A stretch of DNA of 64,000 bases, taken from Candidatus Hydrogenedentota bacterium (GTDB lineage: Bacteria; Hydrogenedentota; Hydrogenedentia; Hydrogenedentales; JAEUWI01). The first letter of the stretch is position 1; the number at the start of each line of letters is the position of its first letter. The position numbers and the translations under genes were made by a program. Below, one piece after another: positions 14,174 to 63,094 of this stretch. The stretch lies in the NCBI GenBank assembly GCA_034669905.1, contig JAXMOL010000007.1:32001-96000 (forward strand), read 5' to 3'. Below the pieces are notes generated by a model that saw only the letters and a list, made by a program, of their open reading frames with translations, was not told where the DNA came from and ran no database searches.

Positions 14174-14200
14174 TAAAGGTACCGGGGGGGATGCCGATAA
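14174..14200 (+). promoter_or_regulatory. Sigma-28 (FliA/SigD) promoter
   Basis: TAAA-N15-GCCGATAA, exact consensus and spacing. Confidence 0.8.
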
Positions 14201-14253
14201 GGATCGTGCGACGGATTTTAACATGACTCCAGCACATGGAGGAGGCCTTCATC

Positions 14254-15579
14254 ATGGGTACATCGGCCCTTTCTTCTCTGGCGAGCTATTACTCGCCTGC
14301 CCCATCTTCCCAGCCGGAATTTCCAGGGGGCGGCGCAAACCGCGCGCTTCGCACACACGCACCTTCCCCCCAACAGGCGCCGTCGGCCCGTGCCTTGCCC
14401 AATCAGGCACTGACCACTACCGATGCCTATGAAGGCGCGGTTTACCGCACCCTGGAGACCCGGCAATCATCTTCCCTCCAGTTTTCCACCTATAGTGCCC
14501 AGCTCGGAAGCGGGGAAAAGGGGGAGGGGGCCGCCGAACTGGCGTCGTCCCAGCTCACCTTCGATTTTTTTCAGGAGTCCCGTTATGAGGAGGTTTCCTT
14601 CTTTCAGCGGCGGACGGATGCTGTGGGCGCGGGGCGTGGAGCGGGGAGCCGCGAATCCTTTTTTGCGGCCCGCGAAGAAATCACCACCCGCTTCCAGCTT
14701 TCCCTGAATATTTCCGGGGCGGCCCTCAGTGGTTTTGCCTCCACGGCGGAAGGGGCGGCGGATTCGGATGCGCTGTTGGACCGCTTGACGGAGATTACAG
14801 AGAAACTGCTGGGCCAGGCCGAAGAACTGTTCAACGAGTTTTTCTCCCAGCTTGACGGCGGCAGTGGAGCATTTAATGCGGTCTCGCTGGAAGATGCCTT
14901 TAACGAGTTTCTCAGCGGACTATATGATTCGTTGGATAGCGAAATTGTTCCTTTTCTACCGCCGCCGGGTGGTGTGCCAGCAGAAGGTGGCACGGGTGGG
15001 CTGGGTGCGAAGAGCACTCAGTTGGAATTCTCCTTTAGTTTCTCGGCTTCCATCACGCGGACCGAAACCGTGGTACAGCAGGGCGATCCCATTGTGCTGG
15101 ATTTGGACGGGGACGGCGTGGAGCTCAGCACCTATCAGGAAGGGGCTCGCTTTGATTTGATCGGCAGTGGTCGCGCCCAGCAGGTGGCCTTCGTTCAAGG
15201 AGGAGATGCCTTTCTCGCGCTGGACCGAAACGGCGACGGATTGATCAACAGCGGTAAGGAACTCTTTGGGGAGCAGCATGGCGCGCGGAATGGCTTCGAA
15301 GAATTGCGTCGCTTCGATAAGAATGGCGACGGCGTGATCGACCGCAATGACGCGATCTATGATTCGCTCAAGCTCTTCGTGGACAATGGCAACGGTATCA
15401 CCGAAGCGGGCGAACTAATCGGTCTGGCGGAAGGTGGTGTTTCCGAGATTGACCTTGGGTACCGCGACGTGGACGAGCGGGCGGCCGGTGGCAATCGCAT
15501 CGCCCAGATCGCATCCTTCTTGCGCAGTGATGGCAGCCGGGGTGTGGCTGCCGATGCCTTGTTGAACTACATCGCGTAG
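14254..15579 (+). CDS. Hypothetical protein with C-terminal FrpC-like Ca2+-binding self-processing module
   Basis: GDPIVLDLDGDGVE, FLALDRNGDGLINSGKELFG, NGFEELRRFDKNGDGVID; GGAGG RBS before ATG 14254; no signal peptide. Confidence 0.75.
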   Translation: MGTSALSSLASYYSPAPSSQPEFPGGGANRALRTHAPSPQQAPSARALPNQALTTTDAYEGAVYRTLETRQSSSLQFSTYSAQLGSGEKGEGAAELASSQLTFDFFQESRYEEVSFFQRRTDAVGAGRGAGSRESFFAAREEITTRFQLSLNISGAALSGFASTAEGAADSDALLDRLTEITEKLLGQAEELFNEFFSQLDGGSGAFNAVSLEDAFNEFLSGLYDSLDSEIVPFLPPPGGVPAEGGTGGLGAKSTQLEFSFSFSASITRTETVVQQGDPIVLDLDGDGVELSTYQEGARFDLIGSGRAQQVAFVQGGDAFLALDRNGDGLINSGKELFGEQHGARNGFEELRRFDKNGDGVIDRNDAIYDSLKLFVDNGNGITEAGELIGLAEGGVSEIDLGYRDVDERAAGGNRIAQIASFLRSDGSRGVAADALLNYIA

Positions 15580-15595
15580 GACGCCGGTATAGGAA

Positions 15596-15624
15596 AACGG
15601 GACCGACGTCAAGCGTCGGCCCCG
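15596..15624. terminator. Hairpin between convergent genes (probable bidirectional terminator)
   Basis: ACGGGACCGACG-tcaag-CGTCGGCCCGT. Confidence 0.55.
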
Positions 15625-15647
15625 TGTGCCTTTTCTGTCGATGTGCT

Positions 15648-19573: not shown

Positions 19574-22500
19574 CTATTCGTGGAGTGACACGCCGATATC
19601 ACCCCCCGCTTCATGGGCGGTGACCACATCGGGAAGCGCATCGCCGTTGAGGTCACCCAGAACCAGGTCGACGGGCTGTTGGCCAGCGCCATAAGCATCC
19701 CCATCGGCGAAGGTCCCGTCGCCCCTGCCCACATAGACTTCAAAGGAATTGTTCAGTTCATTGCCGACGATGGCATCAGGTCGGCCGTCGTCATTCACGT
19801 CATAGAGCGAAACGGTGGTGGGGCGGGGGAGTACATCCCGCTGAAGCGTGGCCGCCAGCGTACCGTCCCCGTTGCCCAGGGCAATCAACAGGTCCGCCGC
19901 AGACGAAGCCACCATAGCCACGTCGGGATTTCCGTCGTTATTCACATCGCCAATGGCCAATCCCATGGGGCCACCAGGGATCCCCAACATGGACGGTTCC
20001 GTGAAAGTACCGTCGCCATTTCCAGGTGCAATGTAGATCCCGGCGAAGGCACCTACCACCGCATCCAGCGACTCATCGCCGTTCATGTCGACGAGGATGA
20101 TATCCATCGCATTGGGGGCGCCGACGAATGCTAACGAATCTGCAAAGGTGCCATCTCCGTTGCCCAACCGCACGGTGAGGTCGGTCGATTGCGAGAACCG
20201 TTCTACCGATACCAGATCGAGTTCACCATCACCATCGATATCACCCAGTGCCAGGACGGCGAGCCCCGTGCCCACGGTGATCGGGGTCGTGCTGGAAAAG
20301 CCGCCCATACCATCGGAGAGGAGGACGTCCACCGCGCCATCACAACAGCGGGAGACGAGGGCATCGGCCAGGGTATCGCCATTCAAATCCCCTGTCGCCA
20401 AATCTACGGGTTCGCTGGCCACCGTCGTTTCCACGCTATCCATGAATTGACCATCGCCACCGCCAAGTAGTACCGACAGGCTGTACATGGGTGAACTGGA
20501 GTTGTCACCGTTCAACACGACGGCATCCAGATTGGCGTCACTGTCCATATGGTTGAGTTCCACCCGGAAAGGCCGTGCACCCACTGCATAACGGCCGTCG
20601 TCAAAGACGCCATCCGCGGAGGCCAGGAAAATGGACACGTCGTCACTCTGGGTGTTGACGAGGGCGAGGTCGAGACTGCCGTCGTCGTTCAGATCGGCGG
20701 GCACGACCCGGTCCGGGAATTGGGCCCCATCCAGGACATCGCCCAGGGTGAAGGTGCCATCTCCCGCGCCGTTCAGAATTTGCACCCCGAATTGCTGACC
20801 GATGAACGAAACAAGGAGGTCCAGGTTTCCGTCTTCGTCCAGATCGACGGATTCCAGGAAATTTACCGAAGGCAGGGGGATATCCGAATCCAGGGTGAAG
20901 GTGCCATCGCCGTTGCCGGAGTAGATGCCCACGATATCGCCCGACAAACCGCCGCGGTTTGCTGCGATGTCCATCGTGCCATTCTTGTCGAAGTCACCGG
21001 TGGCCAACGCATCGGTACCACTACCGGTGCTGAAGACCATTTGCGCTCCGAAGGTACCGTCGCCGGCGCCGAGCAAGACGGAGACCGTGCCGCCAAAGCT
21101 GCCACTGTTGGCTGCAGCCAGATCCGGCACGTTGTCGCCATTGAAATCAGCGGCCCGGAGGAAGCGGGGCGTGTCTCCCACGGTATAGTGCACGGCCGTA
21201 TCGAAGGTGCCGTCGCCATTGCCGAGGAAGATGGACACGTCATCGGTCGCCGTGTTGGGCGTAGCCACATCCAGCTGGTCGTCGCCATTGAAGTCTGCGG
21301 CGACCACCGATTGGGGTGAGATGCCCGACGCATATTCAGTGGGGGCGCCAAAACTGCCCTGCCCATTGCCGGGCACAAAGGAAATGCTGTTGCCGAAGAG
21401 ATTGGCCGTAACGACGTCCATCGCGCCATCTTCATTGAAGTCCCCGGCCACAATGGCATCGGGATTGATGCCAATCCCGAAGTTGGGGTCGGTACCGATC
21501 AGGATGTCCGTGCGCAAGGCAAAGCTACCGTCGCCCTGCCCCAGGGCCAGGCTGAGTGTATCGGGCACCTCATTGGCCGTAATCACATCCAGGATGTCAT
21601 CGCCATTGAAGTCCGCCACCGCCAGATCGCCGGGCGTCGTGTCCACCTGTATCCGTTTCCGTGGGTAGAGCACCGCTATGGCGGGGTTCACGGTGATCAT
21701 TCCCACATCGGTGGTGCCTTCAATCACGGGAGACGTCGCTTCAGAGCGCCCAGACAGGGATTCTGTTTCGTCTTCAAAGGTGGCTGTCACGGTGATGCTT
21801 TCGTAGTTGCTCAGCGTGACCGCGAAGGAGAAGGCACCTGTTTCATCGGTTATCCCTTCGCCACCCTGGTCACTGATGACGGTGGCACCTGCGAGGGCAT
21901 CTCCCGTGCTCCGGTTGACCGTGCCCAACACCGTGGTCATGGCATCCGAGGGGATGTATTCGAGTGTGCCCGCGTCGGTGAGTCCATCAACAACGACGGC
22001 CAGCACATCGGAATTAAAGGCGTCGTCCTCCACCTGAATATTCAACGTCACACCGGCGGTGCCCGTGGGGAGAATGAGGTTGAGGGTAAAGGAGCCGGTT
22101 TCGTCGGTGATGGCTTCGCCACCCAGCGCCGTCGTGACGATCGCACCGACGACCGGGTCGCCGTTGAAGTCCAGCACCTGTCCTTCCACGGTCGTGGAGA
22201 AGAGGTCGTTGGACACGGTGACGCGGCGCACCGCGGTGGCGCTGAAATTGGTGGCCGTGACGTAGGCGGTACCTGTCGAGACCCCGCTCAGGAGGCCATC
22301 GCCACTGACGTTGATGATATCCGGGTTACTCACCCGATAGGTCGTGCCATCGGCCGCACTGCTCAGGTCGACCGGGTCTCCATTGAAGAACGTACCCGTT
22401 ACCCGAAGTTGGCTCGTACCATTTTCCGGAATCGCCAGGGCGGTAGCGCTCAGGGCCACCGTCTGCGGGAAGGGCGGGACCTCGTCACTGAAGGTCAGGC

Positions 22501-25500
22501 TGTCGAATTCGAGGGCGAAGGGTTCCCCGTTGCGGATTTGGAAGGGCGTGCTGTACACATAGCGGGTGCCCGTCTCGGTTTCCTTAAAGCCCAGTAGATG
22601 GAGAATGTCATCGCCGATAAAGTCAGGCGCCGTACCGGGGCCTCCCGGACCAAACTCATCGGGGATAGTGATATTGCCAAAGTCGACCAGACCAAACTCA
22701 TCGGCCAGCGAGATCTGGTTACTCACCATGACGGTGAATCCCGCGAGTTCCGTCGATGTCAACGTGTCAAGCGCACTTTCCGAATCGCTGATAATCTCCT
22801 GAATGCTGGTATCAAACGATGGCGCGTTGATGATCGCCAGGATGGCTTCATCGGTATCGTCGATGGTTTCAACCATCGCTGGCAGGTCCGCAAAGAGCCG
22901 GTCCAGTTCGGCGAGCTGTTCGTCGCTTAGTGGATGTTCCCCCTTATTGCTCACGATGGCACCAAAGGCGAAGATGTCGGACATGCTCTGGAGTGCGGCA
23001 CAGGTCGCGGCGAGGGCGGCTTTCTTCGGGTCGGCGTTGGCCGCCAGATCAATAAATGGATTGGCAAGATTATTGAGGGAATCAATGGTTTTCAGGACGA
23101 CTTCGCCGCTGGTGCCGAGAAAGCAATCGTTGGCGCGTCCAAAGGCTAGCGCCCTGGAGAGTGCATCAGAAAGAATCTTTGCCTTGCTGGCCCATTCAAA
23201 AGGGTTCAAGGGCAGGAATACATCCAGGCAGTTGTTGGCAATGACTTTGAGTGATTTTACGCAGGCGAAGGATTTTGAAAGGGCATCGGGCAATTGGCTT
23301 GATGTGCTGTCGAGATCGCGAAACGCCACATAGGCATCGTAGCAATCTGGCCCCCGAAAGATGATGTCGGAGCCGCAGGCGATAATCTTGGTAATCTTGT
23401 TCACGTCTTTGACCAGTGCGATAAGAAATCGAACACTCTCCTTCAAGAGCGCACCGAGATTGGCTTCACAGGATTTTACCTCTCCGGTGACCGAGTACGG
23501 GGGGCAGTTGCCGCCCCATCCCGCTACGCTGATGCCTGAGCCCCGGTCGGTAACGATTTCCGAAGCATCGTCGGAAACCGCCCCCGTGCCCACGACTTCA
23601 AAGGCACCGGTGTCGTGGTTAAAGCTGAGGAAGAAACTGGCCGTGCCTGCGGCCAGGCCCGCCATGTTGGGATAGACGATTTCCACGGGCGGGTCGAAGG
23701 TCGCTCCCGACGGCTGGAGGGTCCATGCGAAGGGCGAGGCCACCCCGTTGGGTAGTGGCATGGGGATGTCATCGGTCTGCACCTGATTCAAGGCGAGGGT
23801 CGCGGGATTCGACGGGCTGGGTTCGGATCCGTCCGGGTAGCGCATGGAGCCGGCCCGTACGATCATGCGGAGTCCTTCAATGCCGGCCACGGTAAGTTCC
23901 ACATCGGCGGTGCCGTCATAGCTCCGCGCGTTGGTGGGGTCGAGCATGGGCAGGAGTACGGGGGAGGGCAAAGAATTGGCCGCGTTGGCCACCACGGTGA
24001 CGGCGACCTCCAGATCCGGGAAGGAACCCGCATCCACTGTCGCTCCATTTAACTGTGTCGCCTGCAGTCCGCCCACATGGAGATGGCCCTGGCCCGCGGG
24101 GATGTCTTCAAAGATAAAACGTCCGTCGGCACCCGATACCACGCTGGGCACGGCCTCGCCATTGACTTCCAGCTCGCACGGTGCCCCACCCACGGGTAAG
24201 CTGGCATTGTCCAATACGATGCCCGAGAGGGTCGTTGTCATTCCATCGGTAGCGGCGACCGCAAAGGCTTCGAAGAACACCGGTGCACCCATGTTGTCGT
24301 CGAATTCCGCGACCACCATTTGCTCACCGGCATTTTCGCCCATGACCCACGCCACCTCGGCAATCCCATTGGCATCGCTTTCCACCGTGGCCACGATCTG
24401 ATCGTTGACCTGGCCGCCACCCACCATGGCCATAAAATCTACCATGACCCCGGCGACGCCGTTGTCCCCATCACTCACCCGCACCCGAAGCCGATCAGGG
24501 GCCATACCGCCTGTGGCCGCCCGCTGATTGTTGCCCATGACCAGGTTGAGTTGATTCGGCGCGCCATGTTCGGCGGAGGCGCAGAAGGTGACTTCGCTTC
24601 CCGAGAGCTCGTCGCGTACGCGAACCCGGTTGTTGCCGCACCCGGCATCGGCTCCCAGCTTCCAATACACTTGCGCCAGGCCCGCCGCGTCCGTGTTCTG
24701 GGAAAGTTGCAGCGCGGGGTCGTCGAAGGCGGCAGTCCTGTCCAGGAGGCCGTCACTGCGGACCACCCGAAAGGAGAGGACCCGCCCGACGATAGGGGCA
24801 CCGTTTTCGTCCTGCAAGGTCACCTGGATGGGAGCCTCCAGGGCGGTGCGGACCATGCCGCTTTGTCCATTGCCCGCCGTAACGTTGAGGCGGTCCCCGG
24901 TTGGCGCCACCCGCGTGACCGTAATGGTATCGGTGCGGCTGTTTCCTGCCCCATCCGTCGCCACGACCTCGAGGATGTTGTCACCCAGGACCAGGGGGAC
25001 CGATGGAATTTCAAAGGTGCCGCTCGTGCCGACGCCCGAAGCGACGTTGCCCGTGAGACCGCTGAGGGAAACGGTCAATCCGTCGAAGCCACTGAGCATG
25101 TCGGCCACACGCCCGGCGACGGTGAGAGAGTCTTCGGTAATCTGCATGCCATCTGCGGGAAAATCGATGAACACGTTGGGTGCCTGATTATCCTGTGAAA
25201 TCTCCTCCGGAACGGGCGGACTGCTGAGGCCGTTCAACGTCGCCGTCAGGAAAAGGCGGGAAATCCGATTGGGTGCGATGGCCACCGCCACGCTGAACGC
25301 CCCTTCGGCATCGGCGGTCGTCGTAACGTTGGCCACTCCGCCAGTTATCAACAGGGAAGCCTCCGCCGTCGTCGTTCCGGTCAGCGTCACGGCAGACCCG
25401 GTGACGGGCCCGGTGGGTGCCACCACGCTGGGCATGACCGGGGGCACGGCCTCGATGGTGATGTAATCGGTCTGCGTTTCCGTGTCCGTCCCGACGGCCG

Positions 25501-25831
25501 TGGTGACCTGAAGAGAGACGGCGTAGGTGCCCGGGGTGCCGTAATCGTGCACGGGGTTCTGGGCCGTGCTCTCAAGGCCGTCGCCGAAGTCCCAGGCCCA
25601 CTGTGTGATTGCGGCGGTACCGGGGGTCGACTGATCGGTGAATTGGATGAGTGTCGGAGCGGGGCCGTTGGTTTCATCGGCCGTAAAGGCGGCGGTCGGT
25701 CCGGTGTCCATGGGCATCGGATCGGGGTCAGGATCGGGATCCGGGTCGGGTTCGGTCGGAATGAGACATCCCGCAATGGAGGCCGTGTAGACAAAGAGCA
25801 CCAAGAGTGAGGCAAGGCGATGAAAGGACAT
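19574..25831 (-). CDS. 2085-aa surface lipoprotein: PKD, Ig-like and carboxypeptidase-regulatory-like repeats, central helical insert, C-terminal FG-GAP/VCBS repeats
   Basis: Lipobox IAGC followed by (DP)n linker; WAWDFGDG PKD; many DFNGDxxxDL...LGNGDGTF repeats. Confidence 0.85.
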   Translation of the reverse strand: MSFHRLASLLVLFVYTASIAGCLIPTEPDPDPDPDPDPMPMDTGPTAAFTADETNGPAPTLIQFTDQSTPGTAAITQWAWDFGDGLESTAQNPVHDYGTPGTYAVSLQVTTAVGTDTETQTDYITIEAVPPVMPSVVAPTGPVTGSAVTLTGTTTAEASLLITGGVANVTTTADAEGAFSVAVAIAPNRISRLFLTATLNGLSSPPVPEEISQDNQAPNVFIDFPADGMQITEDSLTVAGRVADMLSGFDGLTVSLSGLTGNVASGVGTSGTFEIPSVPLVLGDNILEVVATDGAGNSRTDTITVTRVAPTGDRLNVTAGNGQSGMVRTALEAPIQVTLQDENGAPIVGRVLSFRVVRSDGLLDRTAAFDDPALQLSQNTDAAGLAQVYWKLGADAGCGNNRVRVRDELSGSEVTFCASAEHGAPNQLNLVMGNNQRAATGGMAPDRLRVRVSDGDNGVAGVMVDFMAMVGGGQVNDQIVATVESDANGIAEVAWVMGENAGEQMVVAEFDDNMGAPVFFEAFAVAATDGMTTTLSGIVLDNASLPVGGAPCELEVNGEAVPSVVSGADGRFIFEDIPAGQGHLHVGGLQATQLNGATVDAGSFPDLEVAVTVVANAANSLPSPVLLPMLDPTNARSYDGTADVELTVAGIEGLRMIVRAGSMRYPDGSEPSPSNPATLALNQVQTDDIPMPLPNGVASPFAWTLQPSGATFDPPVEIVYPNMAGLAAGTASFFLSFNHDTGAFEVVGTGAVSDDASEIVTDRGSGISVAGWGGNCPPYSVTGEVKSCEANLGALLKESVRFLIALVKDVNKITKIIACGSDIIFRGPDCYDAYVAFRDLDSTSSQLPDALSKSFACVKSLKVIANNCLDVFLPLNPFEWASKAKILSDALSRALAFGRANDCFLGTSGEVVLKTIDSLNNLANPFIDLAANADPKKAALAATCAALQSMSDIFAFGAIVSNKGEHPLSDEQLAELDRLFADLPAMVETIDDTDEAILAIINAPSFDTSIQEIISDSESALDTLTSTELAGFTVMVSNQISLADEFGLVDFGNITIPDEFGPGGPGTAPDFIGDDILHLLGFKETETGTRYVYSTPFQIRNGEPFALEFDSLTFSDEVPPFPQTVALSATALAIPENGTSQLRVTGTFFNGDPVDLSSAADGTTYRVSNPDIINVSGDGLLSGVSTGTAYVTATNFSATAVRRVTVSNDLFSTTVEGQVLDFNGDPVVGAIVTTALGGEAITDETGSFTLNLILPTGTAGVTLNIQVEDDAFNSDVLAVVVDGLTDAGTLEYIPSDAMTTVLGTVNRSTGDALAGATVISDQGGEGITDETGAFSFAVTLSNYESITVTATFEDETESLSGRSEATSPVIEGTTDVGMITVNPAIAVLYPRKRIQVDTTPGDLAVADFNGDDILDVITANEVPDTLSLALGQGDGSFALRTDILIGTDPNFGIGINPDAIVAGDFNEDGAMDVVTANLFGNSISFVPGNGQGSFGAPTEYASGISPQSVVAADFNGDDQLDVATPNTATDDVSIFLGNGDGTFDTAVHYTVGDTPRFLRAADFNGDNVPDLAAANSGSFGGTVSVLLGAGDGTFGAQMVFSTGSGTDALATGDFDKNGTMDIAANRGGLSGDIVGIYSGNGDGTFTLDSDIPLPSVNFLESVDLDEDGNLDLLVSFIGQQFGVQILNGAGDGTFTLGDVLDGAQFPDRVVPADLNDDGSLDLALVNTQSDDVSIFLASADGVFDDGRYAVGARPFRVELNHMDSDANLDAVVLNGDNSSSPMYSLSVLLGGGDGQFMDSVETTVASEPVDLATGDLNGDTLADALVSRCCDGAVDVLLSDGMGGFSSTTPITVGTGLAVLALGDIDGDGELDLVSVERFSQSTDLTVRLGNGDGTFADSLAFVGAPNAMDIILVDMNGDESLDAVVGAFAGIYIAPGNGDGTFTEPSMLGIPGGPMGLAIGDVNNDGNPDVAMVASSAADLLIALGNGDGTLAATLQRDVLPRPTTVSLYDVNDDGRPDAIVGNELNNSFEVYVGRGDGTFADGDAYGAGQQPVDLVLGDLNGDALPDVVTAHEAGGDIGVSLHE

Positions 25832-26084
25832 TCCGCTTCTCCCGAATGGGGGTTGCGGCAGACACCGATTCGTACAGACAGCGAGCGACTACCGGATAGG
25901 TTGAGTCATTGCTTCTTTTCTGGCGCGCTCGATGAATCTAAGGAACGGTGCTCATCGACCACGTGCATCCACAGTGTACTGGGGAATGGGGATTTTGGCA
26001 ATTCCAGGCGTGAATTTCAGAGCGCAACGTTTCCGTACCGCGCATAACCGGTGCGAGTGTCTGTGAAAAGCTCGAATTAGCGTC

Positions 26085-28418
26085 TCAAAGTTTCACCCCC
26101 CGAAGACGGAGCGCGTTCCCCACCACCGAGACCGAACTGAAACTCATGGCAGCCGCCGCAATCATCGGACTCAACAAAATTCCAAAAATCGGGTAGAGCA
26201 CGCCTGCGGCGATGGGTACGCCAAGGGTGTTGTAGGCGAAGGCGAAGAAGAGATTCTGGCGGATGTTACGCATGGTCGCACGGCTCAGGTGCCGCGCACG
26301 GGCGATGCCGGCCAGGTTGCCCTTCACCAGCGTGATGGCGGCGCTTTCCATGGCCACGTCGGTGCCCGTGCCCATGGCGATGCCCACATCGGCCTGGGCG
26401 AGGGCGGGGGCATCGTTGGTCCCGTCGCCCGCCATGGCGACGTTGTATCCTTCCTCCTGAAGTGCCTTTACCTGCGCGAGTTTGTCTTCGGGCATGACGC
26501 CGGCATGCACCTCGTCGATGCCGAGCTCTTTGGCCACCGCCTGGGCCGTGGTTTCGCTGTCCCCAGTGAGCATGACGATGCGCAGGCCTTCCTCCCGGAG
26601 GGCCTTCAGCGCGTCCGGCGTGCTTTCTTTGATGGGGTCCGCAATACCAAGCAGGCTGGCGGGCTTGCCATCCACCGCCAGCAGCACCACCGTCTGGGCC
26701 TTCGCTCGGAGGGCTTCCGCTTCCTCGGAGAGGTGCCCGTGCTCGATAGCCTGGCTGTCCAGCAGGGCACCATTACCAAGGAACACGGCCTTGCCATCGA
26801 CCTGACCTTTCACGCCCTGGCCGGTCACGCTGTCAAAATCCTGGGCATCGGGCGGGGTGATATCCTGTTCTTTGCATGCCGCGAGGACGGCGGCGGCGAG
26901 GGGGTGCTCACTGCTCTTTTCGAGGGCACCAGCGAATCGGAGCACGTCTTCTTCGCGGAAGTCCCCCTCGGCGGAAACAGATACGACGCGGGGCTTGCCT
27001 TCGGTCAGGGTGCCGGTCTTATCCACCACGAGCACGTCCACCCGCTCCATGGCTTCCAGGGCTTCGGCGTTGCGCAGCAATACACCCGCCTGGGCGCCCC
27101 GGCCCGTACCCACCATAATAGAGATGGGCGTGGCGAGCCCCAGGGCGCAGGGGCACGCAATAATCAGCACGGCGATGGCGTTTACCAGCGCATAGGCCAT
27201 AGCGGGGGAGGGGCCCACCAGCAGCCAGATCACAAAGGTCACGATGGAGGTTGCGATGACGGCTGGCACGAAGTAACCCGCGACCGTGTCCGCCACTTTT
27301 TGAATGGGGGCGCGGCTCCGTTGGGCCTGCTTGACCATATCCACAATCTGGGAAAGGGTCGTGTCCGCCCCGACGCGGTCGGCCCGCATGATAAAACTGC
27401 CCTTGCTGTTTACCGTGCCACCGGTCACGTCGTCGTCGACGGTTTTCTTAACGGCCATGGGTTCGCCCGTAATCATGGATTCATCAATGCTGCTTTCCCC
27501 TTCCAGTACAACCCCATCGACGGGTACGCGCTCACCAGGCCGGACACGGAGGCGGTCGCCTTTCTGAAGCTCATCGACGGGCACATCTTCTTCGTCGCCG
27601 TTTTCGTTGATGCGCCGGGCTTCGCGGGGCGCGAGTTCGAGGAGGGCGCGAATGGCACCGGCCGTTTGGCGCCGGGCCTTGAGCTCGAGCACCTGGCCCA
27701 CGAGCACGAGGGTGATGATGACGGCGGCGGATTCAAAGTAGAGGGCCACCTGGCCGTTGTGCCCTTGAAAGCTATCGGGGAAAATCTGCGGGAACAGAGT
27801 CGCCACCACGCTATAGACATAGGCCACGCCCGTGCCCAGGGCAATGAGGGTAAACATATTCAGGCTGCGGTGGACGACGGACTGCCAGCCCCGCTGGAAA
27901 AACACCGCGCCCCCCCAGAGGACGACCGGCGTCGCCAGGGCCAATTGCACCCATTTGAGCCAGGGCTTCCCGAGGAGGTGTTCCAGCGGCGGAAGCATTT
28001 CACCCATGGCGATGACGAAGATGGGCAGGGTCAACGCAAGGCTTACCCAGAAGCGCCGGCGCATGTCGTCCAATTCGCTCGTGTCCTCTTCGCCACCGTC
28101 GTCCCCGTCCAGGGGTTCCAGGGCCATACCACACTTGGGGCAGGAGCCCGGGCCTTGTTGCTCCACCTCCGGGTGCATAGGGCACGTGTAGATGCGCGTA
28201 TCGTTCTTGTCGGCGACCTTCTTTTTTGTGGGATGGAGATACTCCGCAGGGGCCTCGGTGAATTTGTCTTTACACCCCGCGCTGCAGAAGTAATAGGTCT
28301 TGCCCGCGTGTTCAGCGGTGTGTTTCGCCGTTTCGGGATTCACGTCCATGCCACAGACGGGGTCTTTTTCCGTAGGGGCCCCTTGGTGGTCATCGCGTTC
28401 CGAGTGGGAATGGTTCAT
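26085..28418 (-). CDS. copA: Cu(I)/Ag(I)-translocating P1B-type ATPase with YHS and heavy-metal-binding domains
   Basis: DPVCGM...[16 protein letters not shown]...CPKCGM, TGE, CPC, DKTGT, GDGTND, YN and MSFSS motifs. Confidence 0.95.
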
Positions 28419-28528
28419 GGGTGCCTCGCTTTTGGGTTGGCCGGTGTTGCGCGCGGGAAAACGAATGGGTCCGCACGAAACCCGGCGTGGGAGGACAGTG
28501 CATCATCACATCGAAGTGGGGGTAGGCC

Positions 28529-28819
28529 TCAGCGTTTTCCAGGGCCCGCGTAGCGGATGAAGACATCCATCAGCTCTGCAATCTTCTCATCCCGTTCCGA
28601 TTCACTGCCCGAATCGAAGGTGTCTTTCACACAGGTGGCCATGTGCTCGCCCAGCACCAATTTGCTTGTCTGGGCCAGGGCGGCCTGAGCGGCGGATAGT
28701 TGAAGGAGAATATCGACGCAATACTTGCCATCTTCCACCATGCGCCGTACGCCGGCGATCTGGCCTTCGGCCCGCTTCAGGCGGTTGGCCACCTGTTTCT
28801 GTTTCTCTTCATTCAACAT
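28529..28819 (-). CDS. csoR: CsoR-family metal-sensing repressor
   Basis: RLKRAEGQIAGV, YCVDILLQ, EHMATC (C-H-C ligands); directly upstream of copA. Confidence 0.92.
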   Translation of the reverse strand: MLNEEKQKQVANRLKRAEGQIAGVRRMVEDGKYCVDILLQLSAAQAALAQTSKLVLGEHMATCVKDTFDSGSESERDEKIAELMDVFIRYAGPGKR

Positions 28820-28846
28820 GAGAATCTCCGGTTGAACTCTATCTGA

Positions 28847-28875
28847 ATTATATACCCCGGGGGGGTATCTGTCAA
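28847..28875 (-). promoter_or_regulatory. Sigma-70 promoter with CsoR-type operator in the spacer
   Basis: Minus strand TTGACA-N17-TATAAT; spacer holds ATACCCC-GGG-GGGGTAT C/G-tract palindrome. Confidence 0.9.
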
Positions 28876-28969
28876 GGGGACGGTTTCAGCCCGTTGGTCA
28901 TCCTTGTAACCGCGTCGGACCCTCGCTAGAATCAGGGATGGACGAAACGATACCAATGGAGTACCGGTG

Positions 28970-29755
28970 ATGAACACTGCGGATGCCGCCACCTTCTATC
29001 GCGAAAACGGATTCTACATGCACACCAGGCCTCTTATGGATGGGGCGGCCATTGCCGACACCATACGTGGGATGGAGGCTGTGCGCGACGGTCACTATGA
29101 AACCGGGCTGCCCCCGGAAGATTCCCCCTGGAAGCCGGGCAACGATCCCCGCACCCTGTGCAAAATAGAAATGGCCCAACAGAGCAATCGGGCCATCATG
29201 GCGGCAGTGGCCAATCCCCGTCTCGGGGCGCTGGCCGCCGAAGTGACCGGTGCATCCATGGTTCAGGCGTGGTGGGTTCAGCTCCTGATGAAACCCCCCG
29301 TGTCGCCAGCAGGTAATTTCAACACCAATGTGGGTTGGCACCAGGACGGCCAGTATTGGACCTGTTGGGAGCCCGGCAGTGAAGTCTTCACGGCATGGCT
29401 TGCCCTGAGCGACGTCACGGAAGCGGCGGGCGCCATGCGCTTCGTGCCGGGGTCACCTACCTGGGGCTTGCTCCACCAGGGCGATTTCTACGGACAGGAG
29501 CTGGAAGGACAAATCAAGGTGCCCGAGGGGAAATCCTGGAAGGAAACGGTGTGCGTGCTGCCCCCGGGGGGCGTGAGCTTCCATCACCACCTGACGCTCC
29601 ACGCCAGCGGACCCAACACAAGCGCGTCGCCCCGCCTGAGCCTGGCCATTCATCTGCGGACCGAAAAATCAACGCCAACGCCAGGGCCCCGCACGGGATT
29701 GCTCGAATTCCTGGACGACCAGGAGCGCTGCCCGGTTATCTGGGAGCGAGGATGA
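28970..29755 (+). CDS. Phytanoyl-CoA dioxygenase (PhyH) family Fe(II)/2OG dioxygenase
   Basis: KPP, WHQD, TAWLALSD, GAMRFVPGS, TLHASGPN...R. Confidence 0.9.
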   Translation: MNTADAATFYRENGFYMHTRPLMDGAAIADTIRGMEAVRDGHYETGLPPEDSPWKPGNDPRTLCKIEMAQQSNRAIMAAVANPRLGALAAEVTGASMVQAWWVQLLMKPPVSPAGNFNTNVGWHQDGQYWTCWEPGSEVFTAWLALSDVTEAAGAMRFVPGSPTWGLLHQGDFYGQELEGQIKVPEGKSWKETVCVLPPGGVSFHHHLTLHASGPNTSASPRLSLAIHLRTEKSTPTPGPRTGLLEFLDDQERCPVIWERG

Positions 29756-29766
29756 GAATTGTGAAG

Positions 29767-29916
29767 AGCCCCAGTGGGGTGGCATAGAAATCTTGGAGGT
29801 GATGCTTGCTTCGTTCTATGTCGCCCCGCTGGTACTAATACTGGCGTGATTCCACCAATGCCCAGGACTCGCTACGCTCGCCGCTGGGCTACGATATGTC
29901 GCCCACTTCGTGGACT
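29767..29916. repeat. REP/REPIN-like palindromic element
   Basis: AGCCCCAGTGGGGTGGCATAGAA inverted with TTCTATGTCGCCCCGCTGGTACT; third partial copy TATGTCGCCCACTTCGTGGACT. Confidence 0.6.
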
Positions 29917-29978
29917 ATATGAACCCGTTTCCGGGGCCTTTCTCATACCCCGGACTCTGCCATTGTTTGCTGGTTCGG

Positions 29979-33788
<3,810 letters not shown>

Positions 33789-34161
33789 GAGAATGGCCCC
33801 TGATAGTGTTTTGCCGCCAGATCACAGACGTCTCCTGGCGCGCCGCACGCCAGAATGAATAAGAAACATCTGTGACACCATTCTAGCCATTTGGAGGTGC
33901 GGAGTGTCAAGTGCCCGACCGGGGCGCCTACGGACTTTGGAGCGGATTCGCAGATGGCCCTCCAGGCTACCCTGATATCCACTCTGACGCCATCGCGGCC
34001 TTTGGCGAAACAGGGGTCAGGTATTCGGACTGCCTAGGCCGGGCTCGCATTCTGTAAATTACCCGTGTGTATACGCCATCACCCATCGTTTGCACCGAAT
34101 GTTCCCATCTTGGGGGCGCGCAGGTCAGGATTTCAGCCGTAAGTCTCCACGCGCAGTCCCC

Positions 34162-37380
<3,219 letters not shown>

Positions 37381-37508
37381 TGAATAGTCCCCTTTGGCAC
37401 TCACGTAAAGAAAGACATGGGTTGCACGGAGGGGTGGGTAATTTTGCCCCGAATGTCTACGCCCCAACTTGCCGCTTGACGGCCCTCTGCACCACCCAAT
37501 GGAGCTTC

Positions 37509-50102: not shown

Positions 50103-51446
50103 TTACAGTAAGTACCCTTCTTCGCCGTGTTCGGCCAGGTCGAGACCCTGGCTCTCGGCTTCTTCACTGACACGGAGACCGATGGTCAGATCGATTACCT
50201 TGAAGAGTATCAGGGATACCACACCGCTGTATACCAGCGTGACGAGGATGCTCTTGATTTGTGCGAGCACCTGGGTGCCGATGGTCATGCCTTCGGAGAG
50301 ACCGGATCCGCCCAGGGACTCTGCGGCGAAGACACCGGTAAGTACGGCACCGACGATACCGCCGATACCGTGGACGCCAAAGGCGTCGAGAGAATCGTCA
50401 TAACCGCCCATCCGCTTGATGCTGGTGGCACCTAGGAAGCAGATGACGCCGGAGGCCACACCAATGGCGATGGCACCCATGGGGCCGGCCGTGCCGGAGG
50501 CGGGCGTAATGGCTACGAGGCCAGCAACCGCACCCGTGGCTGCGCCGAGGGCGCTGGGCTTGCCATGTTTGACCCATTCGATGCCCAACCACGTCAGCGT
50601 GGCGGCAGCCGTGGAAAGCTGGGTGACCAGCATGGCCATACCGGCCGTACCGTCGGCCGCCAGCTCACTACCGGCGTTAAAGCCAAACCAGCCGACCCAG
50701 AGCATACCGGCGCCCGTAATGGTCATGGTCATGTTGTGGGGGGGCATGGCGCGCTGGGGATAACCGCTGCGCTTGCCAACCAGGATACAGGCGACGAGGG
50801 CGGCGATACCGGCATTGATGTGCACCACCGTACCGCCTGCGAAATCCAGCACGCCCCAGGTGTGGAAGAGAGCGCCAGGTCCCGACCAGGCCATGTGACA
50901 GATAGGCGCGTAAACAAGCACCAACCACAGCGTGGTGAAGATCAGCACGGCAGAGAATTTCATGCGCTCTGCGAAGGCACCGCAGATAAGCGCCGGCGTG
51001 ATGATGAAGAAGGTCATCTGGAACATGATGAAGATGGTTTCGGGATAGGTGCCCGCCATACCGTCTACCGTCACGTTCTTCAGAAACACGTTGCTGAAGT
51101 TACCGACGAGGGAGTGAAGGTTGATAACCCCTTCCGTCTGTCCTTCCGAAACCCCAAAGGCCAGGCTGTAACCACAGACCACCCAGACGATACTGGCCAG
51201 GGCGACGATGGTGAAACACTGCATTAACACGGACAACACGTTCTTCGAACGGACCAGGCCGGCATAGAACAGGGACAGGCCAGGTATGGTCATAAACAAC
51301 ACGAGCACGGTGGCCACGAGCATCCACGCGGTGTCGCCCGAGTTCAATTCATCCTGCGCCTGGGCCAGTGCGGGGATACAGAGGGCTGCGCCCAGGAATC
51401 CCCATCGCATGCCAAATGCATTGCGAACACGATCTAAATGCTTCAC
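50103..51446 (-). CDS. amtB: Ammonium transporter
   Basis: GDTAWML, FQMTF, DFAGGTVVH, WFGFNAGS, DDSLDAFGVHG; GTG 51446 after AAGGAG. Confidence 0.96.
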   Translation of the reverse strand: MKHLDRVRNAFGMRWGFLGAALCIPALAQAQDELNSGDTAWMLVATVLVLFMTIPGLSLFYAGLVRSKNVLSVLMQCFTIVALASIVWVVCGYSLAFGVSEGQTEGVINLHSLVGNFSNVFLKNVTVDGMAGTYPETIFIMFQMTFFIITPALICGAFAERMKFSAVLIFTTLWLVLVYAPICHMAWSGPGALFHTWGVLDFAGGTVVHINAGIAALVACILVGKRSGYPQRAMPPHNMTMTITGAGMLWVGWFGFNAGSELAADGTAGMAMLVTQLSTAAATLTWLGIEWVKHGKPSALGAATGAVAGLVAITPASGTAGPMGAIAIGVASGVICFLGATSIKRMGGYDDSLDAFGVHGIGGIVGAVLTGVFAAESLGGSGLSEGMTIGTQVLAQIKSILVTLVYSGVVSLILFKVIDLTIGLRVSEEAESQGLDLAEHGEEGYLL

Positions 51447-51631
51447 GTATCTCTCCTTTAAATCAACGGGCGTGCAATACCTTGCGTCAGTCGAAAAAGT
51501 GAAAGGCGGATACAGAGGGGGAAATCCCAAGAGGGTACTCTCCAATGCGCCTGTCCCATTGCCGATGTGCCCCAGTTACCGTACACGCCGTTCCGGGTCT
51601 ACGGAGCACATCAATTGCCACCGCTTAGAAT

Positions 51632-51646
51632 GCAACTACCGTGCCA
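51632..51646 (-). promoter_or_regulatory. Sigma-54 promoter of amtB-glnK
   Basis: Minus strand TGGCACGGTAGTTGC, perfect consensus. Confidence 0.85.
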
Positions 51647-52002
51647 AGGCGGTGCATTCGGGGTGTGCTGTGGGAGTGGGTTTCGCTAAGTGGCTTTATT
51701 GTCATGGGGTTAGGTCGCATTCTGGCAGGTATGGGCAAGCGCCGGGCACGGCCAGGAAAGTGACCTCACCGAGTGTTTGGGCTCAAAAAGATACCAAATG
51801 GTGTGATTGGCGTGTGTGCCGTTACGAAAAGGTAGGAGGGTGGCGCTCCTGCGAGGGGCTTCCCACCCCGGGGTCGCCTGGCCGGAAGCAGGTTGAACCC
51901 GCGGGCATTTCTGGGCCATACTGCGCACCCACGATGCCATCCTTTTGTCGACCGATGGCCGAGACGCAGCCCCGCCCACGGGCCCAGGAGTTCTGTCAGC
52001 CC

Positions 52003-52392
52003 ATGCCCGGAAAAGCCGCCGCCGTAAAGTCTGGAAGTGATCTGGAAAAGAAAGTCGTTCAATTGGGACGGGATCTTGGCCTGGCCGTCGAATCGCAGGT
52101 GGCGGTGGGACGGCGAATCTGGGGGGCACGGCGCAGGATTGACGTGGTCCTCAAGCACCAGGAAACCCGGGTCAGTTTGGGCATCGAGTGCAAATACCAG
52201 GGCAGTTCCGGGTCGGCGGAGGAGAAGATCCCGGCAACGATTGACGACATTCGGGCCTGGCCCATTCGTGGTATCGTCGTCTTTGCGGGCAATGGCTTTT
52301 CGGATAATATTCGGGCCTACCTGTTATCGACGGGGAAAGCCGTCGAGTTATCCGATCTGAAAAAATGGTTGGAGTTGTATTTCGGACTATGA
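52003..52392 (+). CDS. Small PD-(D/E)XK nuclease-superfamily protein (putative restriction endonuclease)
   Basis: Helix GSDLE, then RIDVVL...IECKYQGSSGSAEEK; about 129 aa; start uncertain. Confidence 0.7.
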   Translation: MPGKAAAVKSGSDLEKKVVQLGRDLGLAVESQVAVGRRIWGARRRIDVVLKHQETRVSLGIECKYQGSSGSAEEKIPATIDDIRAWPIRGIVVFAGNGFSDNIRAYLLSTGKAVELSDLKKWLELYFGL

Positions 52393-53237
52393 CAGAGCCC
52401 CTTGCCATAGCGGGAAGCCCACGGCCCTTTCTTAAATGGGTGGGGGGGAAGCGCCAGCTCCTCCGGGAATTAGAACGGCGCGTGGCCGAGGCCCGTCCCC
52501 ATGGCCGATACCATGAGCCCTTTGTGGGGGGCGGCGCCCTGTTTTTCGATCTTTACGGCCGGGAGAAACTCGGACGCAGCAAGGCCTATCTCTCCGACAA
52601 TAACCAGCGGTTGATCCAGGCGTATTGGGGGGTTCAGGAGCACGTCGAAGAAATCATCGCCCTCCTGGAAGCCCATAAGGCCGCCCATGAAAAAGAATAC
52701 TATTACGCGATGCGGGCCCACGTGCCGGAGGATCCCATTGAGCGCGCGGCCCGGATTATCTATCTCAACCGGACTTGCTTTAACGGACTTTTTCGGGAAA
52801 ACAGCAAGGGGGAATTCAACGTGCCCATGGGGCGCTATGTGAACCCCTTGATCTGTGATGCGCCCAACCTGCGGGCCGTTTCCCGGGCCCTGCAACGCTG
52901 CACCATTCGGCACCAGTCCTTCGCCGCCGTACTCGACCGTGCCAAGGCGGGTGACTTTGTCTACTTCGACCCGCCCTACGCCCCCGTATCCAAGACCGCC
53001 AATTTTACGGGGTATCACAAGGGGGTTTTTGGCGAAGCGCTGCAGCGGGAACTGGCCGATGTCTTTCAGGAGCTGACGAAGCGGGGGGTGAAGGCCTTGC
53101 TGTCCAATTCGGACGTGCCCCTGATTCACACGCTTTACGGTAACCACACCATTGAGGTCGTTCGCGCGACGCGGCTGGTCAACAGCAACGCGAGTAAGCG
53201 CGGCAAGGTCAACGAGGTGCTCGTCCGTAACTTCTAG
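52389..53237 (+). CDS. Dam/D12-class N6-adenine DNA methyltransferase
   Basis: FLKWVGGK, EPFVGGGA, YLNRTCFNGLFR, FNVPMG, YFDPPY, LSNS; ATGA overlap with upstream stop. Confidence 0.93.
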   Translation: MTEPLAIAGSPRPFLKWVGGKRQLLRELERRVAEARPHGRYHEPFVGGGALFFDLYGREKLGRSKAYLSDNNQRLIQAYWGVQEHVEEIIALLEAHKAAHEKEYYYAMRAHVPEDPIERAARIIYLNRTCFNGLFRENSKGEFNVPMGRYVNPLICDAPNLRAVSRALQRCTIRHQSFAAVLDRAKAGDFVYFDPPYAPVSKTANFTGYHKGVFGEALQRELADVFQELTKRGVKALLSNSDVPLIHTLYGNHTIEVVRATRLVNSNASKRGKVNEVLVRNF

Positions 53238-61805: not shown

Positions 61806-62369
61806 GTGAGTAAGAAACAGGAACCAGCGTATCCGAATTTTACTTGGGACGAATATTTTTGGATAACTACCGCCAGACTTCCCAGTTGGAGTGGGTGTGA
61901 TTCTCGGAATGCTCATGGAGGCAAATCAGAAGGCGAGATCGTATGGTTTTGTTTTGCACCCGAACGGAGGGGTGAGGAACCCTTAACCGAGGACGAAATA
62001 GCCTCGGTTCAGTGGATTATCGATCATGAGGAGGCGATTCATGATTCGTTGTTGCAAGGGTTGTTCAAGCACTACCCGAGCATCAGGGAATTAGAGTCGG
62101 AGAATATTGAAGAGGAAGAAATCGAAAAGCTCCTTCCCGCCGTTGATACACCTGCGGACTTCAATAAGTACATTGGAATCCATTGTATCAATGTCCATCA
62201 GATTGATGGCGGCGAAGCACCGTATTTCGGTATAGAGTTGTGGTGTCCGTGGGATGAGGATCATACCCAGGGGATATTGATGCATGGGATTGAAGTGTTA
62301 GAGGTTGGCGGCGTTGATGTGGCAGTCACCCTATACATCGCCGAGAACTATGCTAAGAAGAAGCTATAG
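61806..62369 (+). CDS. Acidic hypothetical protein (DUF6985/DUF2004-like), copy 1
   Basis: GIELWCPWDEDHTQGILMHG motif; lower GC than flanks. Confidence 0.65.
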   Translation: MSKKQEPAYPNFTWDEYFWITTARLPSWSGCDSRNAHGGKSEGEIVWFCFAPERRGEEPLTEDEIASVQWIIDHEEAIHDSLLQGLFKHYPSIRELESENIEEEEIEKLLPAVDTPADFNKYIGIHCINVHQIDGGEAPYFGIELWCPWDEDHTQGILMHGIEVLEVGGVDVAVTLYIAENYAKKKL

Positions 62370-62527
62370 GGTGAAGAAACTGTTTTTTTGTTTGGCTTAA
62401 TCACGCAAACTGGCGTCCGTCTCATCCGTGGATAAAATTGTTTGAGGCTGTCCCGGCAGTGTCTTACACTTTCTAACAAGTCTGTAACCCCGATGTTCAG
62501 AACACGGCGCATCGAGGAGCTAAGAGA

Positions 62528-63094
62528 ATGGGCGAAGAAACAAGACCAGAGTTTCCAACCTTTGCCTGGGATGTGTGTTCTTGGACAACGACCGCCCAAC
62601 TCCCCAGTTGGCATGGGTGTGGGAGCAAGAATGGCTGTGGGGAGTATTCCCGATCAGACGGGGATATTGTGGCGTTTGATTTTGCTCCCGACGACCGGGG
62701 GGATGAGCCGTTGACGGAAGCGGAGATAAACCTTGTGCGCTGGGTAGTCGACCATGAAAAAGAAGTACATGACGCGATCTTAGAGGGACTCTTTGAGAAT
62801 CATCCGGGCATCCGGGAAGAATGGCTGGAGTACATACCGGAGGGTCAAGTCGAAAGATGCGTTCCGGCGGTCGGTTCGCCCGAGGATTTTGATAATTACA
62901 TAGGCATTAACGCAATTTACGTTCATCAGATTGACGATGGCCAGGCACCCTATATTGGCATCGAGTTGTGGTGTCCCTGGGATGACGATCATACCCAGGG
63001 GATCTTGATGCATGGCACCGACGTCCTTGAGATCGGTGACGCTATGCTGGCGATTACACTGGACTATGCCACGAAGCACGCCCAAGGGAAATAG
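62528..63094 (+). CDS. Acidic hypothetical protein (DUF6985/DUF2004-like), copy 2
   Basis: GIELWCPWDDDHTQGILMHG; colinear with copy 1. Confidence 0.65.
   Translation: MGEETRPEFPTFAWDVCSWTTTAQLPSWHGCGSKNGCGEYSRSDGDIVAFDFAPDDRGDEPLTEAEINLVRWVVDHEKEVHDAILEGLFENHPGIREEWLEYIPEGQVERCVPAVGSPEDFDNYIGINAIYVHQIDDGQAPYIGIELWCPWDDDHTQGILMHGTDVLEIGDAMLAITLDYATKHAQGK

Follow-up and report, generated by a model that had tools for sequence, protein, structure and literature searches.

We present an analysis of the gene for a protein of 441 amino acids (aa) that lies in a 64,000-nucleotide stretch of contig JAXMOL010000007.1 from a Candidatus Hydrogenedentota bacterium; this 64-kb stretch, to which all positions refer, is called the window in what follows and is a piece of a 7.44-Mb genome that is 95.7% complete. 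The protein carries at its C-terminus a self-processing module (SPM) such as that known from FrpC of Neisseria meningitidis, and its gene stands behind a promoter of the sigma-28 (FliA) type that is conserved among its orthologues. The results point to a chain of events in which the protein would be expressed from the sigma-28 promoter, exported by the flagellum, cleaved in calcium and bonded covalently to a partner, and to this chain as a whole we assign a probability of roughly 0.4. An earlier note on this DNA had read from the letters the promoter, the Ser/Ala/Pro-rich N-terminus without a signal peptide, the module that starts at Asp-Pro, the lack of RTX nonapeptides and of nearby genes for a type I secretion system (T1SS), and membership in the late flagellar regulon. 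All of these stand in the analysis that follows, which came upon none of the refuting outcomes named in the note as far as they can be checked by computation; what has to be revised concerns the acceptor of the covalent bond.

The C-terminal part that begins at the Asp-Pro codons 15085/15088 comprises 164 aa (the note had given about 165), with all of the quoted motifs present. In a phmmer search of the PDB it matches 6sjw with E=2.9e-25 and 6sjx with E=1.2e-24, and the next matches are short EF-hand pieces at E 0.002. The AlphaFold model is confident over the module, with a block pLDDT (predicted local distance difference test) of 85-97, and 6sjw and 6sjx alone fall below E 0.001 in a Foldseek search with this model (E=1.8e-13, TM score 0.76, 35-38% identity). 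The Pfam family PF26745, for which the Atlas has the name SPM, is found on all 120 listed homologues. Pfam EF-hand matches were also considered as separate domains and were rejected, since they are fragments of the SPM that stay below threshold. Sequence and predicted fold make it, in our view, virtually certain that the domain is an SPM. The protein is thus a member of the SPM domain family and not an RTX protein, and Pfam already covers such proteins; GGxGxD does not occur in the protein and PF00353 was not found in the genome at its 95.7% completeness.

The residues to which roles have been given in FrpC (PMC7078468; here and below, published work is represented by parts of the cited papers) were mapped by hand on the phmmer alignment. 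Asp278-Pro279 is the equivalent of D414-P415 of FrpC. Four EF-hand-like calcium loops are present, namely D283/D285/D287/G288 with D318, D324-E336, D355-D366 and D377-E387, the calcium sites of FrpC being D419-G424 with D456, D462-E474, D499-D511 and D521-E532 (PMC7078468). The ligands of a fifth site, E340 (D478 in FrpC; Asp or Glu in the family) and D434 (D579), are present as well, as are the port residues L337, G339, G347 and L437 (L475, G477, G491 and L582 in FrpC). Among 121 homologues D278, P279, D283, D318, E336, D355, D366, D377, E387 and D434 are invariant.

Self-cleavage is argued for by the fate of the scissile position across the family. With an E of 1e-10 or better, and counting large proteins, the SPM profile matches 20,297 clusters, of which the best 150 were listed; among these best 150 there are 108 proteins of at least 600 aa with 271 alignable SPM copies (two or more GGxGxD repeats occur in 87 of these proteins). 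Asp-Pro is found in 25 of the 271 copies, the prevailing pairs being Ala-Pro, Ser-Pro and Pro-Pro. Small proteins that end in the module, whose sequences are related and not independent of each other, have Asp-Pro in 152/152 members of the Hydrogenedentota-type group and 120/120 members of a distant proteobacterial group. The scissile Asp is therefore dispensable for the fold, yet the small class keeps it, and such selection would indirectly back self-cleavage.

The same comparison lends itself to another explanation, in which the SPM serves only for calcium-dependent folding or for calcium binding of a secreted protein that stays intact. This would fit the 246 large-protein copies without Asp-Pro (Ala-, Ser- or Pro-Pro in many), and several features of the module weigh in the same direction, two of which (the residue before Asp-Pro and the Phe at both tryptophan positions of FrpC) the earlier note had missed. 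The T-shaped tryptophan pair W451 and W519 of FrpC is replaced by F313 (Phe in 121/121 homologues) and F375 (Phe in 102, Trp in 19), so that both positions stay aromatic, the fourth calcium loop is one residue shorter than in FrpC, and two small relatives (L118 and L121, of 25 loci) have Glu-Pro instead of Asp-Pro. Furthermore, Asp278 is preceded by Gly277, and Gly at this position nearly blocks the cleavage of FrpC, with minimal SPM cleavage after 60 min; minimal cleavage was reported for Gly, Asp or Pro before Asp-Pro in FrpC fusions (PMC7846742). Against a module that does not cleave stand the Asp kept in 272/272 small proteins from two distant subfamilies with differing calcium loops, the retention of E340, D434 and the port residues, and the occurrence of Ser or Ala before Asp in most of the family (Ser 74, Gly 37, Ala 10; n=121). 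Consequently, we consider the non-cleaving module improbable. Calcium-triggered cleavage at Asp-Pro is probable, judging from the conserved ligands and the selection on Asp, and after Gly it would probably be slow.

Several observations on the wider occurrence of the module can be recorded here. Giant proteins of up to 7,689 aa (P0122-P0264) contain two to four SPM copies each, mostly without the Asp, and the fold is therefore widely reused as a non-cleaving module. A quick tree of 82 SPM rows, in which FrpC was not included, places the SPMs of large proteins on one side with a support of 86, unstarred, for which reason nothing is claimed here about the order of events. Another, divergent SPM-like protein (G000:C37:69567-70796) has Thr-Pro for Asp-Pro and an apparent signal peptide; similar weak matches are found in G062, G066-G069, G013, G026, G044 and G088, and matches of that strength also in two genomes without flagellin. 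Searches of plasmids and phages gave only weak SPM matches, mostly in large or RTX-type proteins, and a viral scan gave one weak locus.

The second line of evidence concerns transcription. The promoter claimed about 50 nt upstream of the gene is an exact match to TAAA-N15-GCCGATAA that ends 53 nt before ATG 14254; no further match occurs in the window even if one mismatch is allowed, and shuffles of the window give a mean of 0.04, with a match in 4/100 of them. The four exact sites of the genome lie before flgM, before the SPM gene and, in two cases, about 0.45 and 2.2 kb upstream of a cluster of three flagellin genes, and 20 relaxed sites include those before fliD and a fourth flagellin gene. 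For the scan of orthologue promoters, 47 of the 73 orthologue genomes were taken (the 30 best loci and 17 more), two of their contigs being too short, and a fixed segment of 430 nt placed from the Asp-Pro codon was scored. The resulting 45 loci comprise 20 exact sites, 16 with one mismatch, 8 with two and 1 with three. At up to two mismatches this amounts to 44/45 orthologue loci, versus 35/2120 control segments around long open reading frames (ORFs), 2/45 reverse complements and 10/900 shuffles; at up to one mismatch it is 36/45 versus 1/2120 control ORF segments. The association extends beyond the phylum. Among 25 loci titled with another phylum or none, 22 were scored, L115, L119 and L134 being left out because they resemble Hydrogenedentota sequences, and 13/22 have a site at up to two mismatches versus 23/430 control segments. 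In the Proteobacteria a sigma-28 site precedes 9/16 small SPM genes versus 8/121 neighbouring ORFs.

The distribution of the gene among genomes is consistent with its promoter. At E 1e-5 the SPM profile matches 78 of 135 Hydrogenedentota genomes, the match being strong (E < 1e-43) in 73 and weak in 5; Flagellin_N is found in 109 and FliA in 101 of the 135. The 73 genomes with a strongly matching orthologue have flagellin without exception and FliA in 68 cases, and none of the 26 genomes without flagellin has the orthologue. In family f3 flagellin occurs in 2/23 genomes and the SPM gene in those same 2, and in family f8 both occur in the same 8/10 genomes. The source genome itself has FliA over the cut-off, flgM and flagellins. 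Carriers reached through the loci of other phyla have flagellin in 5/5 cases.

Some of these counts tell against so close a tie to the flagellum. Of the loci outside Hydrogenedentota, 9/22 lack a site at up to two mismatches, and a single subgroup with 8 members accounts for 7 of the 9. The orthologue is absent from 36/109 flagellin-positive genomes, including all 14 of family f7, and the SPM protein is therefore not needed for the flagellum. The 26 flagellin-less genomes go back to only some four or five losses that are independent, and not all of these genomes are complete. Sampling of the class to which an Ectothiorhodospiraceae record belongs (301 genomes) gave 33 with an SPM, 12 of them with the small form; 10 of these 12 have flagellin, one of the exceptions being G183 with its truncated gene, compared with 16/21 other SPM genomes and 134/300 in the background, and this control of co-occurrence is weak because the other SPM genomes also have flagellin so often. 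In a phylum-wide sample 5/401 genomes match at E 1e-40, the four new ones all with flagellin. On balance, promoter conservation and co-occurrence with flagellin and fliA strongly support membership in the late flagellar regulon, as the earlier note had proposed, and transcription of the gene by FliA along with flagellin, fliD and flgM is very probable.

Three further observations concern sigma-28 sites. The subgroup just mentioned (L112, L114, L122, L124, L126, L129, L132 and L135) starts with MA(E/Q)GL, has a different N-terminal domain, mostly lacks a clear sigma-28 site and may use another promoter. In G183 (L146 / L179), where no flagellin was found, the small SPM gene is truncated within the module and a sigma-28-like site is kept, which is possibly decay after flagellar loss. 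The exact site that precedes the flagellin cluster by about 2.2 kb (L222, G000:C2:218890-219100) has no clear ORF behind it and is followed by several ACGGA motifs; it gave no Rfam match near threshold and is a candidate sigma-28-driven CsrA-binding RNA.

How the protein would leave the cell has to be judged from its N-terminus and from the export systems of the genome. Residues 1-53 consist of Ser, Ala and Pro to 51%, have block-mean pLDDT values of 43-48 and show no secondary structure in the model. There is no hydrophobic core, the best 12-residue Kyte-Doolittle mean being 0.62, which is a heuristic and not a SignalP result; at the same heuristic threshold a signal-like core is found in 0/121 and 0/120 small homologues versus 585/1513 long ORFs. 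A Pfam scan of 41 window ORFs, chosen from 86 listed at a length of at least 150 aa, gave no T1SS family, in agreement with the claim that no such genes lie nearby, and no flagellar family. One FlhA-type match was found in the genome and therefore no second type III secretion system (T3SS). The SPM of FrpC binds calcium at about 150 uM, the cytosol contains less than 100 nM, and at low calcium the module is unfolded and needs extracellular calcium to fold (PMC7078468); the module would therefore stay unfolded inside the cell. A useful precedent is provided by the Feds of Campylobacter jejuni, which are sigma-28-dependent non-flagellar proteins exported by the flagellum (PMC5223770). We infer export via the flagellum because of this analogy together with the requirement of the FrpC module for extracellular calcium, and we consider the flagellar T3SS a plausible and moderately favoured route.

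It is also conceivable that the protein does not use the flagellum, being either a cytoplasmic regulator or calcium sensor induced by sigma-28, or a protein that exits by a C39-ABC/HlyD exporter or by lysis. The export signal is a candidate only, a disordered N-terminus followed by helices could equally be a binding arm, and contig C6 encodes a C39-peptidase ABC exporter together with an HlyD partner, unlinked to the SPM gene, which speaks against the flagellar route; TIGR01843 is not over the cut-off in the genome. RTX repeats are missing from the protein and no transporter is linked to its gene, however, and the calcium demand of the FrpC module is far from what the cytosol offers. These explanations are accordingly very unlikely.

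The order of events that we propose may be summarized as follows. The SPM protein would likely be made late in flagellar assembly and would likely pass unfolded through the flagellar type III channel; a module that is unfolded at low calcium would suit the narrow channel and would keep the reaction outside the cell. Extracellular calcium would fold the SPM, which would then cut itself at Asp278-Pro279, and the N-terminal 278 residues would form a covalent bond with an amine of some partner close by. The result would be a device by which the swimming stage attaches covalently.

The last step is the most delicate one, and capture of the anhydride by a partner amine and not by water is in our judgement only slightly favoured. 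The earlier note had named the filament, the surface or a target as what the N-terminal domain would be linked to, and the filament part of this proposal does not hold up well. The five flagellins of the source genome have 1, 1, 0, 3 and 0 lysines in about 270 aa, and FliD and an FlgL-like protein have 1.3-1.4% lysine. The median is 3 lysines for 36 flagellins from 14 carrier genomes versus 2 for 25 flagellins from 13 non-carriers (of 14 non-carrier stretches, one yielded no complete flagellin), and lysine-enriched flagellins in carriers, considered as a possibility, were rejected since the counts are alike with and without the gene. As an observation in its own right, Hydrogenedentota flagellins are uniformly about 271 aa long with 0-6 lysines and several copies per genome (L191-L218, G000). 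Because flagellins are almost free of lysine, the filament would be a poor acceptor. One could still imagine that the fragment is linked to lysines of flagellin, cap or hook-junction proteins and coats a filament that has no large outer domains: the SPM gene is co-regulated with the flagellins, these are short (median 271 aa), and in one genome (G082) a flagellin gene lies directly upstream of the orthologue on the same strand. Given that the flagellins, with their 0-6 lysines, are no different in length where the SPM gene is present and where it is absent, and that a third of the flagellated genomes do without it, such a decoration is quite improbable. A protein of the cell surface, of a substrate or of a neighbouring cell at or near the flagellum is the more likely acceptor.

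The scarcity of lysine in the flagellar partners can also be taken to mean that the module clips without linking. The protein would then cut itself in calcium after export and its anhydride would be hydrolysed or react within the molecule. The SPM would in this case be a pro-domain that removes itself and leaves the N-terminal domain free for polymerisation, for the coating of a surface or for signalling. Conserved Asp-Pro and calcium ligands would be expected here just as well. No acceptor gene is linked to the SPM gene in the orthologue neighbourhoods, unlike frpD-frpC, which counts against a covalent partner, and SPM fusions are known to give hydrolysed and self-cyclised products (PMC12538545). 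Moreover, the proteobacterial subfamily has Lys before Asp-Pro in 114/120 members and a cargo with 5.9% Lys. On the other hand, both FrpC and ApxIVA do form cross-links (PMC7078468, PMC3034196), and the N-terminal fragment of the Hydrogenedentota protein is acidic with 1.9% lysine versus 3.0% in the background, which fits avoided self-capture, other late flagellar proteins being equally poor. We consider cleavage without linkage unlikely, and retain covalent bonding to a partner as the preferred reading.

The part of the protein that would be transferred, residues 54-277, appears to be specific to the lineage. Searches of Pfam and NCBIfam gave no matching family for it, no fold in the PDB came below E 0.001, and the Atlas gave no usable match. 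Residues ~94-227 are predicted as a helical bundle, best for ~110-200, followed by a variable linker, a conserved QLEFxFxF motif and then Asp-Pro; the conserved motifs of this cargo, which is acidic and lysine-poor, are QLxFxFF and QLEFxFxF. A beta-sheet formed by the QLxFxF motifs was considered and rejected, both models giving low-confidence helix or disorder there, and the prediction of a four-copy complex of residues 55-287 scored 0.24 (mark 0.42), which counts neither for nor against such an assembly. The N-terminal profile matched 0/120 of the small proteobacterial relatives; therefore the cargo varies by lineage, while module and promoter persist.

The coordinates of all features are collected in the table. 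An alternative, longer ORF from 14236 would add six codons before ATG 14254, and the Met-Gly start common to most homologues (M1 in 118/121, G2 in 102/121) supports the latter as the start codon. Upstream of the gene lie lptF/lptG-type neighbours in divergent orientation and downstream a convergent gene, and the 441-aa protein gene is apparently transcribed alone. The hairpin between it and the convergent gene has a T-run after it on the plus strand as well; alone it is not above chance, because one hairpin was found and shuffles give 1.8 +/- 1.2. Close homologues are assigned to Candidatus Hydrogenedentes / Hydrogenedentota. No conserved neighbourhood was seen in 20 orthologue loci, two other loci having divergent lptF/lptG; the orthologue gene is usually solitary and its surroundings vary among loci in Hydrogenedentota, other phyla and Proteobacteria.

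Table. Features of the SPM gene and its surroundings (window positions)
Feature	Position	Strand	Basis
Sigma-28 (FliA)-type promoter, TAAAG-N14-GCCGATAA	14174..14200	+	One of the four exact sites of the 7.44-Mb genome
Leader between promoter and start, 53 nt	14201..14253	+	Sequence, orthologue leaders
Ribosome-binding site GGAGGAGG	14238-14245	+	Sequence, orthologue leaders
Gene for the 441-aa protein	14254..15579	+	ORF listing, Pfam scan, varied orthologue neighbourhoods
Residues 1-53, Ser/Ala/Pro-rich, predicted disordered, candidate flagellar export signal	14254..14412	+	pLDDT, composition
Residues 54-277, lineage-specific cargo domain	14413..15084	+	Alignment, predicted models
Asp278-Pro279, predicted scissile bond, Gly277 before it	15085..15090	+	Invariant in 121/121, alignment to 6sjw/6sjx
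FrpC-type self-processing module (Pfam PF26745 'SPM'), residues 279-441	15088..15576	+	phmmer, Foldseek, PF26745
12-bp hairpin between the 441-aa protein gene and the convergent gene	15597..15625	.	Terminator-like on the minus strand

The leader contains a recurrent GCGACGGA motif. In the window GCGACGGA(T) is at 14208-14217, and in many of 32 orthologue leaders it lies about 8-18 nt past the -10 box. It may be a candidate CsrA site that couples translation to flagellin levels; the genome has csrA and fliW next to each other. Elsewhere in the window, tandem paralogue pairs of two PEP-CTERM proteins and two DUF6985 proteins are found at 654-2972 and 61806-63094, three large surface-type proteins (2085, 1269 and 1101 aa) with PKD, FG-GAP or Ig-like domains at 19574-37467, interrupted by a heavy-metal P-type ATPase, and at 51286-53237 a PD-(D/E)XK nuclease that adjoins a D12-class adenine methyltransferase as a restriction-modification-like pair.

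Three known groups of proteins invite comparison. With FrpC/FrpA of Neisseria meningitidis and ApxIVA of Actinobacillus pleuropneumoniae the protein shares the fold, Asp-Pro at the N-terminal edge of the module, the four EF-hand-like loops, the acidic ligands of the fifth site and the port residues. In contrast to FrpC and ApxIVA, which exceed 1000 residues and have an internal SPM, it is 441 aa long and ends in the SPM. RTX repeats are lacking, neither a T1SS nor an FrpD-like partner is linked to its gene, and the promoter is of the sigma-28 type; Phe/Phe stand for W451/W519 of FrpC, and Gly, Ser or Ala instead of Tyr before Asp. With the Feds, FspA and CiaI of C. jejuni it shares a sigma-28-type gene in the flagellin regulon and an exit through the flagellar T3SS, which is inferred here and shown for them; the lack of a Sec/Tat signal (heuristic scan) and the disordered N-terminus (low pLDDT, residues 1-53) are likewise Fed-like traits, whereas no homology is expected and no self-processing module is described for the C. 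jejuni proteins in the part of PMC5223770 cited here. The third group, proteobacterial proteins of 300-430 aa with PF28292 (DUF8379) and PF26745, is similar in its C-terminal SPM, intact Asp-Pro, lack of a signal peptide and often a sigma-28-like site. It differs in an unrelated N-terminal domain, Lys before Asp and two degenerate calcium loops, and no characterisation of these small proteins was found in the literature searched. Small SPM relatives are named 'VCBS repeat-containing protein' or hypothetical at NCBI, and Bacillota clusters occur in the Atlas.

The module has been said to occur exclusively in large RTX proteins, with activity shown only for FrpC and ApxIVA, in the portion of PMC7078468 (2020) used here, and no flagellar or non-RTX SPM protein was found in the literature searched, a negative on which the supplementary homologue lists of PMC12538545 (Figure S1) may bear. 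The present results describe a compact, RTX-free class of SPM proteins in Hydrogenedentota and other phyla that conserved promoters and gene loss connect with the flagellar regulon. Tentatively, we see in it a late-flagellar 'covalent glue' of flagellated bacteria of several phyla, by which, after export through the flagellum and conversion into a reactive anhydride in contact with calcium, lineage-specific cargo would be welded onto surfaces, cells or flagellar parts. If the protein cleaves and links, it would be a self-activating covalent adhesin or surface modifier added to the flagellar system, and it offers a simple test of a clip-and-link role in non-pathogens. The class also supplies divergent natural modules for protein-ligation tools such as NeissLock, some of which may tolerate Gly or Ser before Asp. 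If this reading is true, clip-and-link would be a widespread flagellum-coupled function and not a speciality of the RTX proteins of pathogens.

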